DNA of 4,948 nt from a virus (Duplodnaviria > Heunggongvirae > Uroviricota > Caudoviricetes). This document shows positions 1 to 4,948 of the stretch, piece by piece; position 1 is the first letter of the stretch, and each line of letters starts with the position of its first letter. The position numbers and the translations under genes are program-made. Where the stretch lies: IMG/VR virus record IMGVR_UViG_3300029650_000085. The stretch is one strand, 5' to 3'. The notes beneath the pieces were generated by a model. It searched no databases, had not been told where the DNA came from, and was given only the letters and a program-made list of their open reading frames with translations.

Positions 1-186
1 TTCGGTTACCCGGGATTCACCTTCGCCAGCCAGAAACCAGGTGTGACCAGTTTTATCAACGACGCCTTTTCTTTTGAGTTCCCACAGCTCGTTGACAGCC
101 TCTTCACGACTGATTCCAAGGCGAGCTGCCACCACATGTGAAGAGGCTTTTTTCAGTGCTTTCAGTGCGTCAGATACGGTTTCCAT
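1..186 (-). CDS. Hypothetical protein, partial (ATG at 184-186; C-terminus lies beyond the window start); occupies the ydaW position downstream of ydaV
   Basis: Open minus-strand frame from ATG 184-186 to the window edge (62 codons, [41 protein letters not shown]...). GGAGGA sits 7 nt upstream (plus 194-199 tcctcc). It starts 21 nt after the ydaV stop, consistent with operon continuation. Not in the ORF track because it is truncated by the window edge. Confidence 0.5.
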
Positions 187-207
187 TAAAATTTCCTCCG
201 GACAAAA

Positions 208-954
208 TTACTTCACAACCCTCATATTGCTGACATTTGGACGCCAGCTATCCCAGTTAAACGTCACCCATCGACCACCGTTCATGGTCATGCGGTCCAT
301 AATCCTCTCACCAAGAAGCGTACTCATTGCGGCATGATTCAGGTTTGTTAACATCCCGACACTGCACAGTGATGCTGTCCGGCGATCAATTATCTGGTGC
401 AATACCACCTGCTCGTTTTTCGTCTCCCGCTGAACGCCTATTTCATCCAGGACCAGCAAATCAACCCCGCAAAGCTCCTGTAAAAATTTTTCCCCGGATT
501 TGCCGTTGTCGTAGCTGTCATGCAACACGCTCATGACGTCAGACACGGTGACGATAATCACGCTGCGCCCCTTCACCATCAGCCGGTTGCCCATCGCCGC
601 TGCAAGGTGATTTTTCCCGGTGCCGGTTTTACCGCTGAACACAAAATTCGTGCACCCGGTCATCAGTTCGTCAGCTATGGATTTGGCCTGGCTCAGCGCG
701 TATTTTTGCCCGTCGTTCTGCACCTGATAATTTGCAAACGAGCATTTGCTGTGCAGAGGCTGGATGCCCGAACGATTCAGGATTTTTTCCACCCGCAACT
801 GGCGATTCTGGCGGTTAATCTCCTCGCTGCGTTTTCGTCCTTCAGCAAGTTGCCATTCCCGCCACTCCTCCACCGTCCGGTACGGTGGAACCGACCCCTG
901 TGGTGCAAGTCTGCGAATACGTTCAAGAACCCCAACTGCCGCAATGTTTTTCAT
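208..954 (-). CDS. ydaV: DnaC-like replicative helicase loader (AAA+ ATPase), prophage replication protein
   Basis: 248-aa ORF with ATG at 952-954 and TAA at 208-210. Walker A-like FSGKTGTGKNHLAAA and Walker B DLLVLDEIG match the DnaC/IstB family signature as I recall it. The start lies 6 nt downstream of the upstream initiator gene stop. Length equals that of K-12 Rac YdaV (from memory). Confidence 0.9.
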   Translation of the reverse strand: MKNIAAVGVLERIRRLAPQGSVPPYRTVEEWREWQLAEGRKRSEEINRQNRQLRVEKILNRSGIQPLHSKCSFANYQVQNDGQKYALSQAKSIADELMTGCTNFVFSGKTGTGKNHLAAAMGNRLMVKGRSVIIVTVSDVMSVLHDSYDNGKSGEKFLQELCGVDLLVLDEIGVQRETKNEQVVLHQIIDRRTASLCSVGMLTNLNHAAMSTLLGERIMDRMTMNGGRWVTFNWDSWRPNVSNMRVVK

Positions 955-960
955 GACACG

Positions 961-1893
961 TCACCCCCTGAATCCCGGCGGTATTTCAGTGTCCGGTTCA
1001 GAAATGTGATTCACGCAACGCTGCGCAGGCGAACGCCCCAGGCGGATAACCAGTTCATCCCATTTTTCCCGGAGTTTTGCCGGACTCATGATGTTTTTTA
1101 CCCAGAACGAATCCCGCTGGAGACGCCCAAACATTTCACAAATTTGTCTGTGAGTTCTGCCATCCAGCATCCGCATTGTGCGAACGTCATTGGCCCATGC
1201 TGTCCAGTTGGGTTCTTTCGGTCTAGTGATCTCGCCATCATAGCTGGCCGCCTGCTCGTAAAGACTCACGATTCGTCCCCAGATCCACTGTGCGCACACC
1301 AAATCTTCCTGACTTCCCCACTGGCGTTTTTTCGCACTGAACACAACCGCGTCAGGGTGTCGGGTTAAAAAATCCTGTTCAGCCGTCTGCGGGTCCGGTT
1401 GCGAAGCGTCCGGACAAGAAGATCTTTTATCTGACGGATCAGGTTTTAATACTGACGGATCGGGGTCAATCATCGCCCCCCTAATCGGCAGTTTTTTATC
1501 AACAGTTGATCCATCAAAATTTGACGGGTCAACCGTTGAGGGGTCATTTTTTGCCGGGCTAATTTTTCTTTTCGGTTTATATGACTCACGCGCCGCCGCC
1601 GCAGCTGCTTCGAGTTTTTCCACATTAAGCCGATAGATATTGCTTACATTACGCCCACCGACCTTACGCTCTTCCTTCGTCAGCCAGCCCTCTTTCGCCA
1701 GTTCTGCAATAGCCGATTTCACTGTGGATTCACTTCTTGCACCGATCTGACGCCGGATAGTTTCAATGGCAGGCCATGACACGCCCTCGTCATTGCTGTA
1801 GTCTGCAAGACGGGCCATAACCGCCACCCTGGATAAGATCATGCCGGTGAAGGCGCACCCTTCCCAGACAAGACCATGAAGCTTGCTGCTCAT
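961..1893 (-). CDS. ydaU: Phage replication initiator / replisome organizer (lambda O-like, N-terminal winged-helix domain)
   Basis: Long minus-strand ORF with stop TGA at 961-963. The track start at 1908 is GTG; the first ATG is 1891-1893, preceded by GGGGG. The N-terminus (LSRVAVMARLADYSNDEGVSWPAIETIRRQIG...ELAKEGWL) looks like a winged-helix DNA-binding domain. The central Asp/Pro-rich linker is encoded by iteron-like DNA repeats. Start is uncertain: alternatives at 1842 or 1818 would give 293 or 285 aa. Confidence 0.8.
   Translation of the reverse strand: MSSKLHGLVWEGCAFTGMILSRVAVMARLADYSNDEGVSWPAIETIRRQIGARSESTVKSAIAELAKEGWLTKEERKVGGRNVSNIYRLNVEKLEAAAAAARESYKPKRKISPAKNDPSTVDPSNFDGSTVDKKLPIRGAMIDPDPSVLKPDPSDKRSSCPDASQPDPQTAEQDFLTRHPDAVVFSAKKRQWGSQEDLVCAQWIWGRIVSLYEQAASYDGEITRPKEPNWTAWANDVRTMRMLDGRTHRQICEMFGRLQRDSFWVKNIMSPAKLREKWDELVIRLGRSPAQRCVNHISEPDTEIPPGFRG
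1425..1585. other. Candidate replication origin inside the initiator gene: iteron-like repeats followed by an A/T-rich tract
   Basis: TGACGG(A/G)TC occurs three times (1432-1440, 1453-1461, 1522-1530). Palindrome TCAAC-N-GTTGA occurs twice (1499-1509, 1529-1539). GGGTCA recurs at 1463-1468, 1525-1530 and 1541-1546, followed by a T-rich tract 1545-1580 (cattttttgccgggctaatttttcttttcggtttat). Lambda-type origins lie inside the O gene with this layout. Confidence 0.4.
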
Positions 1894-1915
1894 AAAACCC
1901 CCGAACACCGTGCTT

Positions 1916-2341
1916 TTAGTGCATCACCACAGCATTCCCTGCCGGGCCGCCGCGATTCATCTGGTCATACAAAACAACCGCTGACGCAACAAAATCATCG
2001 ACATCCTTCACCAGCCGATCCCTCCGTTCGACGATCTCACGGTAATATTCAGAACTGTGGCTGCGCATACGGGCCACCAGCAAAGGCGGCATCGCCTTTT
2101 CGATCGCCGGTAACAGAGCCTGCATTTTTTCAACAGCATCAGGGGTGTCTTTATCCAGCCAACGGAAAATTTTCTGGGTATTACGGGCCAGGGCTTCCGG
2201 ATGGCTGTCGTCGTACAGTTCAGGGAACGTCATCCCCAGTTCGAAATAAGTCCGGGCTATTTCAGCTGCAGGAACTTTCTCACCATCAGGGTATGCCCAG
2301 GCATTCATCGCCATGCGGATGTGCTCATGTTTGATTTTCAT
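1916..2341 (-). CDS. ydaT: YdaT-family protein (CII-like; toxic when derepressed)
   Basis: 141-aa ORF with ATG at 2339-2341 and TAA at 1916-1918. N-terminus MKIKHEHIRMAMNAWA and length match my recollection of Rac YdaT. It overlaps the 3' end of the upstream Cro-like gene by 17 nt. Confidence 0.85.
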   Translation of the reverse strand: MKIKHEHIRMAMNAWAYPDGEKVPAAEIARTYFELGMTFPELYDDSHPEALARNTQKIFRWLDKDTPDAVEKMQALLPAIEKAMPPLLVARMRSHSSEYYREIVERRDRLVKDVDDFVASAVVLYDQMNRGGPAGNAVVMH

Positions 2342-2648
2342 GAATCATTTGCCTCTTGATGCTTCGGGTATGATCGTTTTCGTCATTTGGTTGCTTCATC
2401 GACATATTCTGCGAATAACATGACGAGCGTCGTAAGTATGTCCAATCAACATCAGGACGAAGTTCTTCACACAGGACACCACCTTTTGTTGCTCGTTCAA
2501 TCGCAGGACATCTCTCAGCAGGTAACTGACGTACACCTTTGATCCATTGATTTACGCTTGGAGGAGATACACCTAAAAGCCTAGCCATTGCTGATTGCCC
2601 ACCGACAACAGCACAAGCTCGTTTGAATGAATAGTTATCTTTTTTCAT
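2325..2648 (-). CDS. ydaS: YdaS-family Cro-like HTH DNA-binding protein
   Basis: The track ORF 2325..2669 starts at GTG; the first ATG (2646-2648) has GGAG 8 nt upstream and gives 107 aa (MKKDNYSFKRACAVVGGQSAMARLLGVSPPSVNQWIKGVRQLPAERCPAIERA...). HTH-like segment. Divergent from the repressor gene. Confidence 0.8.
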   Translation of the reverse strand: MKKDNYSFKRACAVVGGQSAMARLLGVSPPSVNQWIKGVRQLPAERCPAIERATKGGVLCEELRPDVDWTYLRRSSCYSQNMSMKQPNDENDHTRSIKRQMIHENQT

Positions 2649-2675
2649 CGAATGAACTCCAAAAAACACGCAACA

Positions 2676-2705
2676 ATATTAGGCTTAGCCTAATGAAATT
2701 GTCAA
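2676..2705 (-). promoter_or_regulatory. Leftward sigma70-type promoter for the ydaS-ydaT-ydaU-ydaV operon
   Basis: On the minus strand: -35 TTGACA (plus 2700-2705), 18-nt spacer, -10 TAATAT (plus 2676-2681). Both hexamers overlap operator palindromes. Predicted by eye only. Confidence 0.55.
2678..2694. promoter_or_regulatory. Operator palindrome ATTAGGC-TTA-GCCTAAT (7-bp perfect arms), overlapping the -10 of the leftward promoter
   Basis: Perfect dyad symmetry read directly from the sequence. Sits in the divergent repressor/cro-like intergenic region. Confidence 0.55.
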
Positions 2706-2721
2706 TAGGCTATGCCTAATA
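2699..2721. repeat. Left arm of a 23-bp perfect inverted repeat (ttgtcaataggctatgcctaata) bracketing the repressor gene
   Basis: Exact reverse complement of 3342-3364. Contains a -35 TTGACA (minus strand) and an operator half-palindrome. Confidence 0.9.
2704..2720. promoter_or_regulatory. Operator-like imperfect palindrome aATAGGC-TAT-GCCTAAt, overlapping the -35 of the leftward promoter
   Basis: Shares the TAGGC-N3-GCCTA core with the site at 2678-2694, with a 26-bp centre-to-centre spacing. Confidence 0.5.
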
Positions 2722-2772
2722 CATCGAGAGTAGGGATTGCCTAACGCGATGCGCATAGGAGACTATTAAGCA

Positions 2773-3249
2773 ATGCTTAGTGGTAAAGACTTAGGCCGAG
2801 CGATAGAGCAGGCCATTAACAAAAAAATTGCATCAGGAGCCGTCAAATCAAAGGCGGAAATCGCACGTCATTTCAAAGTCCAACCACCATCAATCCATGA
2901 CTGGATTAAGAAAGGTTCGATAAGTAAAGACAAACTTCCAGAACTATGGCGTTTCTTTTCTGATGTGGTTGGTCCAGAGCATTGGGGGCTTAACGAATAC
3001 CCCATACCAACCCCATCCACTTCAGATACAAAAAGTGAACTTTTAGACATAAACAGCCTTTATCAAGCCGCCTCTGATGAAAAAAAAGCAATTGTGGCTT
3101 TCATCTTATCTGGAAATGCTACGGAGCCTAGTTGGGTTGATTATGACGTTCGCGCCTACATTGCCGCAATGGAAATGAAGGTAGCTAACTATCTGAAAAA
3201 TCAAGAATCAAAACGGAAAAGCCAGAACATCACCAAGACAGGAACTTAA
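2773..3249 (+). CDS. racR: RacR-type prophage repressor (HTH)
   Basis: 158-aa ORF with ATG at 2773-2775 and TAA at 3247-3249. HTH-like segment SKAEIARHFKVQPPSIHDWIKKGSIS. Length and N-terminus match my recollection of Rac RacR. AGGAG at 2757-2761 lies 11 nt upstream. Divergent from the cro-like gene. Confidence 0.85.
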   Translation: MLSGKDLGRAIEQAINKKIASGAVKSKAEIARHFKVQPPSIHDWIKKGSISKDKLPELWRFFSDVVGPEHWGLNEYPIPTPSTSDTKSELLDINSLYQAASDEKKAIVAFILSGNATEPSWVDYDVRAYIAAMEMKVANYLKNQESKRKSQNITKTGT

Positions 3250-3341
3250 ACTTATATGGTCCGACGGGAAATTCCTAGTTCCCGTTAGTTAACTCCTACT
3301 ACCTCTCCCACAAACCATCACCTATTAGGTTGCGCCCAAAT

Positions 3342-3364
3342 TATTAGGCATAGCCTATTGACAA
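3342..3364. repeat. Right arm of the 23-bp perfect inverted repeat (tattaggcatagcctattgacaa)
   Basis: Exact reverse complement of 2699-2721. Carries the -35 TTGACA of the rightward promoter. Confidence 0.9.
3345..3361. promoter_or_regulatory. Operator-like palindrome ATTAGGC-ATA-GCCTAtt, overlapping the -35 of the rightward promoter
   Basis: Mirror copy of the 2704-2720 site. Further half-sites ATTAGG at 3324-3329 and 3368-3373. Confidence 0.45.
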
Positions 3365-3386
3365 GTAATTAGGCATTTCCTATAGT
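3358..3386 (+). promoter_or_regulatory. Rightward early promoter (TTGACA-N17-TATAGT) driving the small ORFs, DicF and the dicB-position ORF
   Basis: -35 TTGACA at 3358-3363, 17-nt spacer, -10 TATAGT at 3381-3386. The operator-like site 3368-3384 overlaps the spacer and -10. Predicted by eye only. Confidence 0.6.
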
Positions 3387-3567
3387 TTTCCCATACCAAC
3401 CCATCCCGTCCCACACAATACAGGGCAATACCTCGAGTTACCAGGCAGTGGTCAGGGGTTAAGTAGCCAGCCCGAGGCGTAAGAACATGACGGCAGGGTT
3501 CAACTTTAATAACTATGCAGCAGGTTTTTGTTCCGCTACCCCGGCGTTAAGGGGAAATGAGGTCAGC

Positions 3568-3720
3568 ATGGATACTATCGAGCTTGGCAACAACGAATCT
3601 CTGGTATGCGGCGTGTTTCCCAACCAGGACGGCACGTTTACCGCGATGACATATACCAGAAGCAAAACGTTTAAAACTGAAGCTGGCGCGCGTCGCTGGT
3701 TAACCAGAAACACTGACTGA
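3568..3720 (+). CDS. Small hypothetical protein (~50 aa), YdaF/YdfA-like by position
   Basis: ATG at 3568-3570 with GAGG 5 nt upstream; stop TGA at 3718-3720 overlaps the next ATG (ATGA). The track ORF could instead start at 3487 (77 aa, weaker RBS). The shorter form is chosen on RBS spacing and on the ~51-aa length I recall for the homologous small proteins. Confidence 0.5.
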   Translation: MDTIELGNNESLVCGVFPNQDGTFTAMTYTRSKTFKTEAGARRWLTRNTD

Positions 3721-4052
3721 TGAGGTTGACGATGGAATTTAAAGATTTACCAGTACCATTCCAGGAAATGGCATCGAATGTGGTTCGCTCTCAACTGGCG
3801 ACTCTTGACCTGAGTACCGTAGAAAAAGAAACCATCGACAATATATCCGGTAACGTACGCCGAGCCTTTATCGGGCTGTACGAAGAGAAGCAGCTCTCTG
3901 ATAACCAGGATTTACATGAAAAATACTTCCTGGATCTAATGGACATCATTGATAAGGGGTTTGGCTTGTTAATGAAAAAGAAAGGGATTCGAATAGAACC
4001 CCTTGAAAATTACTTTGCAACAAAAAGCATTAATTCTTTTGATTCAAAATAA
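3720..4052 (+). CDS. Hypothetical protein (110 aa), translationally coupled to the upstream small ORF
   Basis: ATG at 3720-3722 overlaps the upstream stop; alternative ATG at 3732 with GAGG upstream. TAA at 4050-4052. AT-rich coding sequence. The 3' end overlaps the convergent 91-aa ORF by 23 nt. Confidence 0.55.
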   Translation: MRLTMEFKDLPVPFQEMASNVVRSQLATLDLSTVEKETIDNISGNVRRAFIGLYEEKQLSDNQDLHEKYFLDLMDIIDKGFGLLMKKKGIRIEPLENYFATKSINSFDSK

Positions 4053-4305
4053 GAGAATTAATTACAGACTTAACATGCTCTTTCTCATGATTGAAGCTCT
4101 CATGATTGAAAGTGCCGGGTTGAAGCGAGTCGATATAATCAACAAGACTCTGTCGTACGACTTCATTTTTATCCATAACAGATGCAAGAAATGAAATTGC
4201 TAAAAGAGTTATATCACTACGCGCCGCAGCATGTTGCAATGCTTTATCAAAATTATTAATCTGGCGTATCAGGGAGTTAATGATTTCATCATTTTCAGTC
4301 GACAT
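4030..4305 (-). CDS. Hypothetical small protein (91 aa), antisense to the rightward early operon
   Basis: ATG at 4303-4305 preceded by a consensus AGGAGG with 5-nt spacing; TAA at 4030-4032. One hydrophobic segment (ITLLAISFLASVM) and a tandem FNHES/FNHEKE repeat (DNA direct repeat ctcatgattgaa at 4083-4094 and 4099-4110). The track ORF extends to 4638 (TTG start) through a GC-rich Arg-rich frame that I consider non-coding. Confidence 0.5.
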   Translation of the reverse strand: MSTENDEIINSLIRQINNFDKALQHAAARSDITLLAISFLASVMDKNEVVRQSLVDYIDSLQPGTFNHESFNHEKEHVKSVINSLILNQKN

Positions 4306-4639
4306 TTCACCCTCCTGAGGGTTGGTGATTAAGGAGTTCTCCACGGGTGAGGTGGAGTGCGTGCGCCGGACACGGGTGAGCATCCGGCACTGACAGTTTA
4401 CTGAAAGGATATTTCCCTGAAAAGTCAGACCATAACGCGAAAGCGCCCGGCGAGGTAGCTGGTTCATAGATAGCCTGTCGTTAAATTTTCGTCGACCGTG
4501 CGTTTCCGGTTGTGGCAATCCGCGAAATGGCGCGGCGGTAAGTATGGCGGGGTTATTCCTTCCCCGTTGAGGACACCGAGTTGTCAGGTTGACCATACGC
4601 TTAAGCGACAACCCCGCTGCAACGCCCTCTGTTATCAAT

Positions 4640-4697
4640 TTTCTGGTGACGTTTGGCGGTATCAGTTTTACTCCGTGACTGCTCTGCCGCCCTTTTT
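4640..4697 (+). ncRNA. dicF: DicF-type small RNA (cell-division/ftsZ-targeting sRNA of the dicB operon)
   Basis: The sequence tttctggtgacgtttggcggtatcagttttactccgtgactgctctgccgccc (4640-4692, 53 nt) followed by TTTTT matches the DicF sequence as I remember it. It lies between upstream small ORFs and a downstream short ORF, as in the Qin dicB operon. Recalled, not searched. Confidence 0.75.
4655..4697 (+). terminator. Intrinsic terminator hairpin forming the DicF 3' end
   Basis: GGCGG (4655-4659) pairs with CCGCC (4687-4691), with internal CAGU/ACUG pairing, followed by a T5 tract at 4693-4697. Confidence 0.6.
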
Positions 4698-4700
4698 AAA

Positions 4701-4720
4701 GTGAATTTTGTGATGTGGTG
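4701..4720 (+). repeat. 5' arm of a long-range inverted repeat (potential 20-bp RNA duplex with 4831-4850)
   Basis: tgaattttgtgatg (4702-4715) is the exact reverse complement of catcacaaaattca (4836-4849). Flanking positions extend the pairing with G-U wobbles. Confidence 0.8.
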
Positions 4721-4830
4721 AATGCGGCTGAGCGCACGCGGAACAGTTAAAACCAAAAACAGTGTTATGGGTGGATTCTCTGTATCCGGCGTTAATTGTT
4801 AACTGGTTAACGTCACCTGGAGGCACCAGG

Positions 4831-4850
4831 CACTGCATCACAAAATTCAT
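4831..4850 (+). repeat. 3' arm of the long-range inverted repeat, ending 4 nt before the SD of the dicB-position ORF
   Basis: See the 4701-4720 arm. The GAGG Shine-Dalgarno at 4855-4858 is immediately downstream. Confidence 0.8.
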
Positions 4851-4866
4851 TGTTGAGGACGCGATA

Positions 4867-4948
4867 ATGAAAACGTTATTACCAAACGTTAAGGAAGGTG
4901 CGAATAAGCGGGGAAATTCTTCTCGGCTGACTCAGTCATTTCATTTCT
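4867..4948 (+). CDS. Short ORF in the dicB position, partial (N-terminal 27 codons; continues beyond the window end)
   Basis: ATG at 4867-4869 with GAGG 8 nt upstream (MKTLLPNVKEGANKRGNSSRLTQSFHF...). Lies about 170 nt downstream of DicF, as dicB does in Qin. Identity with DicB is not verified. Confidence 0.45.
   Translation, partial: MKTLLPNVKEGANKRGNSSRLTQSFHF

Follow-up and report, generated by a model that had tools for sequence, protein, structure and literature searches.

The window, by which we mean the whole stretch of 4,948 nucleotides analysed, contains a canonical dicF gene at 4640-4692, which belongs to the PL-type (early-left) operon of a lambdoid prophage of E. coli. The prophage has an immunity region of the RacR type, and RacR very probably silences the operon ydfA-orf106-dicF-dicB until the repressor is inactivated. 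This association of RacR with DicF is ordinary; it reflects routine module exchange among lambdoid prophages and is already found in reference genomes.

Identification of the dicF gene

DicF is a textbook prophage sRNA. In an Rfam search with cmscan, DicF (RF00039) was found at 4641-4692 on the + strand with a score of 76.7 bits, the gathering score being 48 (E = 2.8e-16; model positions 1-52 of 52 covered). Positions 4640-4692 were identical to the annotated dicF gene of K-12 (b1574) at 53 of 53 positions, both target-pairing regions included, and identity to K-12 extended to the 20 bases 3' of position 4692, TTTTTAAAGTG.... Folding revealed the DicF 3' hairpin at 4655-4691 followed by U5 (-15.9 kcal/mol, z = -2.3); a simple terminator scan did not report this hairpin, the loop of which exceeds the 8-nt limit of the scan. 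Based on the Rfam match, the identity to K-12 and the folding, the sRNA was assigned to 4640-4692 and its U5 tail to 4693-4697, on the + strand. These are exactly the limits, 4640-4697, of the region that an earlier note on this DNA had recognized as a 53-nt stretch plus U-tail matching DicF. The Rfam search suggested there gave the significant match described above, and the outcome that was to speak against the assignment, no match to the DicF model, is thereby excluded.

The gene sits in an operon of the dicBF type, with ydfA upstream and the start codon of dicB at 4867 downstream. It is preceded by an untranslated precursor region of the Qin type (4320-4639, 320 nt, + strand), which is part of a longer segment, 4320-4892, showing 98.3% identity to K-12 Qin.

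Annotation of dicF is uneven in the public records. RefSeq (PGAP) names racR and dicB, and leaves dicF unannotated, at L001 (13641-13692), L002 (10472-10523) and L006-L008, where the dicF copies scored 69-77 bits on the Rfam model; an ncRNA feature is present in the K-12 record only. Copies of DicF are therefore easily overlooked at loci at which racR and dicB are named.

Immunity and replication genes

The repressor gene racR was located at 2773-3249 on the + strand (NCBIfam RacR equivalog, 244.6 bits, cutoff 200). Its product is 90% identical to K-12 RacR and gave no alignment with DicA in BLASTP. Two genes on the - strand encode a YdaS-family Cro-like regulator (2325-2648; Pfam YdaS_toxin, 103.9 bits, and P22_Cro; PHROG 35) and a YdaT-family CII-like regulator (1916-2341; Pfam YdaT_toxin, E = 2.8e-10; PHROG 163, CII-like activator, E = 2e-47). 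With a RacR orthologue, divergent ydaS/ydaT and three intergenic palindromes, the region has the features of a RacR-type lambdoid immunity region. A DicA/DicC (Qin-type) immunity was not indicated by BLASTP or blastn, as no DicA/DicC homologue was found upstream of the operon and blastn similarity to Qin started only at 3530. The equivalog score, the Pfam domains and the lack of detectable similarity to DicA/DicC bear out the description in the earlier note of the upstream immunity genes as RacR/YdaS/YdaT rather than DicA/DicC.

Next to these regulators, on the same strand, is a gene for a replication initiator-like HTH protein (961-1893, - strand; Pfam HTH_36; annotated start as in L001). It showed no DNA homology to K-12 ydaU, and blastn aligned no part of 998-2317 with K-12 Rac; the half of the window called Rac-like is thus a mosaic in its own right. 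At the end of the protein, the final 21 residues weakly matched the C-terminus of primosomal protein DnaT (NCBIfam PRK02854, E = 0.004). The gene at 208-954 (- strand) encodes a DnaC-like helicase loader of the YdaV type (NCBIfam PRK12377, 506 bits; IstB/DnaA ATPase domains) and has 77% DNA identity to ydaV of K-12 Rac.

Operators and promoters

A 17-bp palindrome, ATTAGGC-N3-GCCTAAT, was matched 7 times in the window when up to 3 mismatches were admitted, compared with 0.20 matches expected by chance. The matches are clustered, 3 + 1 at the right operator and 3 at the left operator. The right operator region (2676-2745), between ydaS and racR, has palindromes at 2678-2694, 2704-2720 and 2729-2745, which overlap a leftward PR-like promoter, TTGACA-18-TAATAT, at 2705-2676 on the - strand (consensus 10/12). 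The left operator region (3324-3386, + strand), downstream of racR, has palindromes at 3324-3340, 3343-3359 and 3368-3384 together with a PL-like promoter, TTGACA-17-TATAGT, at 3358-3386 on the + strand. With 11/12 consensus positions it ranked first among the promoter-like sites of the region; the second and third left palindromes contain its -35 and -10 hexamers, and it is directed toward ydfA...dicF-dicB. A 34-bp inverted match connects the two operator regions (blastn). Compared with K-12 Rac, the half-sites were invariant at both operators, with substitutions confined to the palindrome centres, and the promoter hexamers at the left operator were conserved. Judged from these predicted sites, the arrangement is the classic lambdoid layout of right operator with PR and left operator with PL.

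In K-12, gel shift and ChIP demonstrated binding of RacR to three palindromic repeats between racR and ydaS (PMC5700373), and silencing of racR derepresses the left-arm genes ydaG, kilR, racC and recET (bioRxiv 10.64898/2026.09.06.749655). Because the operator triplet at 3324-3384 overlaps the promoter hexamers, and because the left arm of K-12 is derepressed upon racR silencing, control of the left promoter, and with it of the dicF operon, by RacR can soundly be predicted. The half-sites of the operators do not differ from those of K-12 Rac, and a resident RacR of the Rac type could therefore probably act in trans as a repressor of the operon of the window.

A fourth near-palindrome with altered half-sites, ATTAAGCAATGCTTAGT, is present at 2765-2781, where it overlaps the start codon of racR (2773); its conservation extends to K-12 Rac. 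It may either serve in autoregulation or have arisen by chance.

Mosaic structure of the window

Comparison with K-12 by blastn divided the window into segments of different relatedness. Rac-like DNA was found at 27-997 (ydaV, 77%) and, beyond the segment 998-2317 described above, at 2318-3555 (ydaS, racR, left operator and leader, 86%). The ydfA region matched both prophages, Qin ydfA at 3530-3699 (91.8%) and Rac ydaF at 3577-3701 (85.6%). The segment 3700-4319 matched neither Rac nor Qin. It is followed by the Qin-like segment 4320-4892, which comprises the pre-dicF leader, dicF, the spacer and the start of dicB; within it, 4687-4851 also aligned with the Rac kilS-kilR spacer (79%). The last segment, 4893-4948, is IS5.

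At 3530-3555 the window is covered by both the Rac-like and the Qin-like interval, and this stretch corresponds to a conserved box just 5' of the ydfA ribosome-binding site. The box, GTTCCGC..CCCGGCGTTAAGGGGA (approximately 3530-3555), lies in the operon leader (3387-3567, + strand) and was found in 4/4 prophages in a four-way alignment. It is the principal module junction relative to K-12. Prophages with a different immunity become homologous to the window at about 3391, directly 3' of the promoter, indicating that the immunity-specific segment ends there. The mosaic junction between Rac-like and Qin-like modules that the earlier note had expected within 3250-4640 does fall inside that interval, at about 3530-3555; the expectation of one junction did not hold, as there are at least 3 breakpoints, those at 3700 and 4320 included.

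Genes between the promoter and dicF

The first gene of the operon, ydfA (DUF1391), is located at 3568-3720 on the + strand (Pfam DUF1391, 96 bits) and has 91.8% identity to Qin ydfA and 85.6% to Rac ydaF. Downstream of it, a 620-bp cargo block (3700-4319) replaces ydfB + ydfC of Qin. The block contains an ORF of 106 aa on the + strand (3732-4052), which is hypothetical in L001, was assigned to PHROG 6937 (function unknown; E = 6e-67) and had no match in PADLOC or among the sequences of solved structures (PDB). A convergent ORF of 91 aa on the - strand (4030-4305), likewise hypothetical in L001, had no match in Pfam, NCBIfam, PHROG, PADLOC or solved-structure sequences; it occupies the slot that in Rac holds the opposite-strand exclusion gene sieB. 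The whole block was present in 198 complete E. coli genomes; approximately 1450 carried parts of the 106-aa ORF. The block could be a moron or a slot for exclusion genes. A terminator-like hairpin is present on the minus strand at 3982-4004, and convergent transcription or Rho-dependent termination in the block could reduce read-through to dicF.

Interruption of dicB and the dicF-dicB spacer

Only the 5' part of dicB is present, as a stub of 8 codons plus 2 nt (MKTLLPNV; 4867-4892, + strand) that matches the start of K-12 dicB. It is followed by the terminal 56 bp of IS5 (4893-4948), inserted in dicB at TTAA and identical to the end of K-12 IS5A at 56/56 positions; the evidence for IS5 consists of these 56 bp, the transposase and the far end lying beyond the edge of the window. 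The insertion follows codon 8 of dicB (4892/4893) and leaves dicF, 175 bp upstream, intact. Homology to all complete genomes stops at 4892, and the exact dicB::IS5 junction was absent from the complete E. coli genomes and from a set of species-representative genomes. With dicB disrupted by IS5, the sRNA is the only arm of the cassette intact in this strain. The earlier note had proposed that a division-inhibition cassette is placed here under a different repressor. This proposal holds in so far as RacR-type operators cover the promoter facing the dicF operon, and fails in so far as dicB is truncated.

In K-12, most of the toxicity of the operon is caused by DicB, and a construct with DicF and without DicB (F+B-) was not filamentous; DicF expressed from the chromosomal operon without DicB produced hardly any division phenotype and was difficult to detect (PMC5069750). 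In view of this weak effect of K-12 DicF, the physiological effect of the dicB-less copy in the window may be small as well.

A second interrupted dicB was observed in an ST131 strain (L007 4278-5802), in which the gene is split by IS2 and dicF is intact (69.3 bits). Knock-out of the toxic protein arm by an IS element, with the sRNA kept, may be recurrent.

The spacer between dicF and dicB (4698-4866, 169 nt, + strand) has 79% identity to its K-12 Rac counterpart between kilS and kilR. Part of it, 4704-4844, aligned with the Rfam model STnc100 (RF02076) over model positions 21-154, with 34.1 bits against a gathering score of 47, and was rejected as an STnc100 member on account of this score; the kilS-kilR spacer of Rac is likewise weakly STnc100-like (28 bits). 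Full-scoring copies of STnc100 (136-165 bits) were found in the same prophage type in the late region, near Q and tRNA genes (L001 1530-1739 and 2017-2207; L002 80-269).

Frequency of the RacR-DicF arrangement

The frequency of the arrangement was determined in 5426 complete E. coli genomes with a threshold of at least 80% query coverage. The 547-bp DicF region was present in 4059/5426 genomes. A query in which racR, the left operator and the leader are fused to the DicF region was matched in 237 genomes, and one in which K-12 dicA and dicBp are fused to it in 723, both halves of a fused query having to lie side by side to reach 80%. With 237 and 723 of 4059, most DicF-bearing genomes have neither repressor beside dicF. 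At three loci sampled among these other genomes the repressor differed each time; an HTH protein of 130 aa, a protein of 139 aa and a LexA-family protein of 112 aa were encoded, which are at most distantly related to RacR, DicA or one another. DicF scored above the gathering score in 6/6 loci examined (69-77 bits).

Among deposited phage genomes, none had RacR and DicF together at a query coverage of at least 80%. Those with DicF carry other immunities (phage Tritos, mEp460, PPompW and Stx2 phages), and the sole deposited phage record with a "Rac prophage repressor" has a left arm of the Rac type. In the literature, no paper was found that deals specifically with the pairing of RacR and DicF.

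The rarity of this pairing implied by the earlier note is contradicted by its presence in 237 complete genomes and by the finding that the dicA linkage of K-12 is itself in the minority. Conclusions on DicF induction drawn from DicA and Rem in K-12 apply directly to only a minority of the DicF-bearing genomes, 723 of 4059. As a whole, the window is of little significance, since it contains a known sRNA in a RacR-linked arrangement already represented in reference genomes such as that of O103:H2 12009.

Proposed mechanism

From the observed identities of DicF, RacR, the operators, the promoter and IS5, and from the mosaic map, the following course of events may be proposed. In a lysogen, RacR would occupy the three left operators (3324-3384) overlapping the strong sigma-70 promoter (3358-3386) and would thereby keep ydfA-orf106-dicF-dicB silent; it would also repress the divergent ydaS/ydaT promoter via the matching operator triplet at 2678-2745. 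Upon inactivation of RacR, a polycistronic RNA would be made, with co-transcription running through the cargo block. For the subsequent steps, RNA processing and target pairing, we infer the course of events from work on the identical RNA of K-12. There, RNase E and RNase III cut the polycistronic transcript and an intrinsic terminator generates the 3' end of DicF; aided by Hfq, DicF pairs through its 3' region with the ribosome-binding site of ftsZ and through its 5' region with xylR (PMC5069750; bioRxiv 10.1101/2023.04.14.536235). DicF of the window would accordingly be excised by RNase E + RNase III, with its 3' end set by its own hairpin and U-tail, and together with Hfq would pair with the ribosome-binding site of ftsZ and also with the xylR, pykA and manX mRNAs. 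Less FtsZ synthesis and an altered sugar metabolism would be expected to result. With dicB lost to IS5, the sRNA arm would act alone.

Alternative explanations

The point at which this scheme is most open to another reading is the control of dicF. A separate promoter nearer to 4640 might drive the gene, or transcripts from 3358-3386 might stop in the cargo block, by Rho-dependent termination or by collision with the convergent gene at 4030-4305; in the latter case DicF would be essentially silent. Between promoter and dicF there are indeed a convergent ORF and a minus-strand hairpin, and DicF was undetectable when the chromosomal operon of K-12 was induced from Plac (PMC5069750). However, the promoter scan found no promoter-like site on the + strand between 3387 and 4640, and in K-12 dicBp was the sole promoter found for DicF (bioRxiv 10.1101/2023.04.14.536235). 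In addition, the cargo-containing arrangement is 99.9% conserved in several genomes in which the operon runs on to xis and int, which fits a functional early-left operon. Effective escape of dicF from RacR is thus improbable, and RacR control is preferred.

Two other readings concern the identity of the parts and can be given next to no weight. The juxtaposition of RacR and DicF would be a one-off chimera or an assembly artefact only in spite of the colinearity of 1-4892, at 99.9% identity, with several independently closed genomes and of the 237 complete genomes in which racR and the left operator are linked to the DicF region. These refute it, even though the dicB::IS5 junction is unmatched in the genome sets searched. 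It is just as hard to believe that the similarity to DicF is a fortuitous by-product of a protein-coding gene. A mechanical ORF of 68 aa (4498-4704) does span dicF, but it had no match in Pfam or NCBIfam and was rejected as coding on these grounds; RefSeq genomes have no gene annotated at its position, K-12 annotates the dicF stretch as ncRNA, and the covariance-model score is far over the threshold.

Comparison with known systems

Over 1-4892, the window is 99.9% identical to an ompW-located prophage of E. coli MS 145-7. A prophage at potC in O103:H2 12009 is 94-98% identical and has ydfB + ydfC in place of the cargo block. Both show the same order racR - operator - ydfA - ... - dicF - dicB and look intact, their operons continuing with dicB, ydfD, an exonuclease gene, xis and int. 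Unlike the window, they have an intact dicB and no IS5.

The likeness to the PL operon of lambda with kil is one of layout only, namely a repressor gene, a left operator with PL and a division inhibitor in the early-left operon. Lambda has N antitermination and a CI repressor that is cleaved in the SOS response. RacR, in contrast, has been described as a short repressor unresponsive to SOS (bioRxiv 10.1101/2023.04.14.536235).

With Qin of K-12 the window shares DicF (53/53), a stretch of 573 bp that runs from the leader before dicF into the start of dicB (98.3%), the order ydfA ... dicF - dicB, and a lambda-PL-like layout in which a repressor gene is followed by a tripartite operator with promoter and then the operon. 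It differs from Qin, which has dicA/dicC, in having a RacR-type repressor and operators without similarity to DicA, a leader about 140 nt longer with the extra part shared with Rac, the 620-bp cargo block in exchange for ydfB/ydfC, and a dicB interrupted by IS5.

The left arm of K-12 Rac consists of racR, ydaG, ydaF (DUF1391), sieB on the opposite strand, the sRNA KilS and kilR, which encodes an FtsZ inhibitor. The window resembles it in RacR (90%), in the conserved half-sites, promoter and leader (86% over 2318-3555), in having a DUF1391 gene and, in the matching slot, a gene on the opposite strand, and in the spacer (79%). The end of KilS is equivalent to the 3' end of DicF, and the terminator hairpins of the two align; on the DicF model, KilS scored 39.1 bits, short of the 48 required by the gathering score (E = 4e-7 for a search of 501 nt). 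The differences are that the single-stranded 5' part of the window sRNA is that of DicF, whereas KilS bears a 16-nt RprA-like stretch, and that the inhibitor gene is dicB in the window and kilR in Rac.

The kilS gene itself (L004 4406-4503, minus strand; K-12 Rac) looks composite, with a DicF-homologous 3' hairpin/terminator and an RprA-like part. Its single-stranded part contains ATTGCTGTGTGTAGTC, a 16-nt exact match to K-12 RprA (25/26 over a longer stretch) located just 5' of the terminator, as in RprA. The one paper found to name KilS as an sRNA refers to neither DicF nor RprA.

A broader scheme, which we consider rather doubtful, is that prophages of the RacR and DicA types share an ancestral early-left cassette, composed of an Hfq-dependent sRNA on a DicF-hairpin scaffold and an FtsZ inhibitor, in which the seed is exchangeable, and that hosts repeatedly delete the protein arm by IS elements and keep the sRNA. 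If this were true, the seeds would be those of DicF in the window and the RprA-like one in KilS of Rac, the losses of the protein arm would be those by IS5 in the window and by IS2 in the ST131 strain, and the window would show a DicF on its way to becoming a domesticated regulator of the host, controlled by a RacR switch independent of SOS.

The order racR...KilS-kilR indicates that a cassette of an sRNA and a division inhibitor under RacR is the native state of Rac. The placing of a division inhibitor under RacR, which the earlier note had proposed, is therefore no new wiring, K-12 Rac already having KilS + kilR after racR. The best description of the window is that of an allele swap within an early-left backbone shared by Rac and Qin, and not that of a rewiring.
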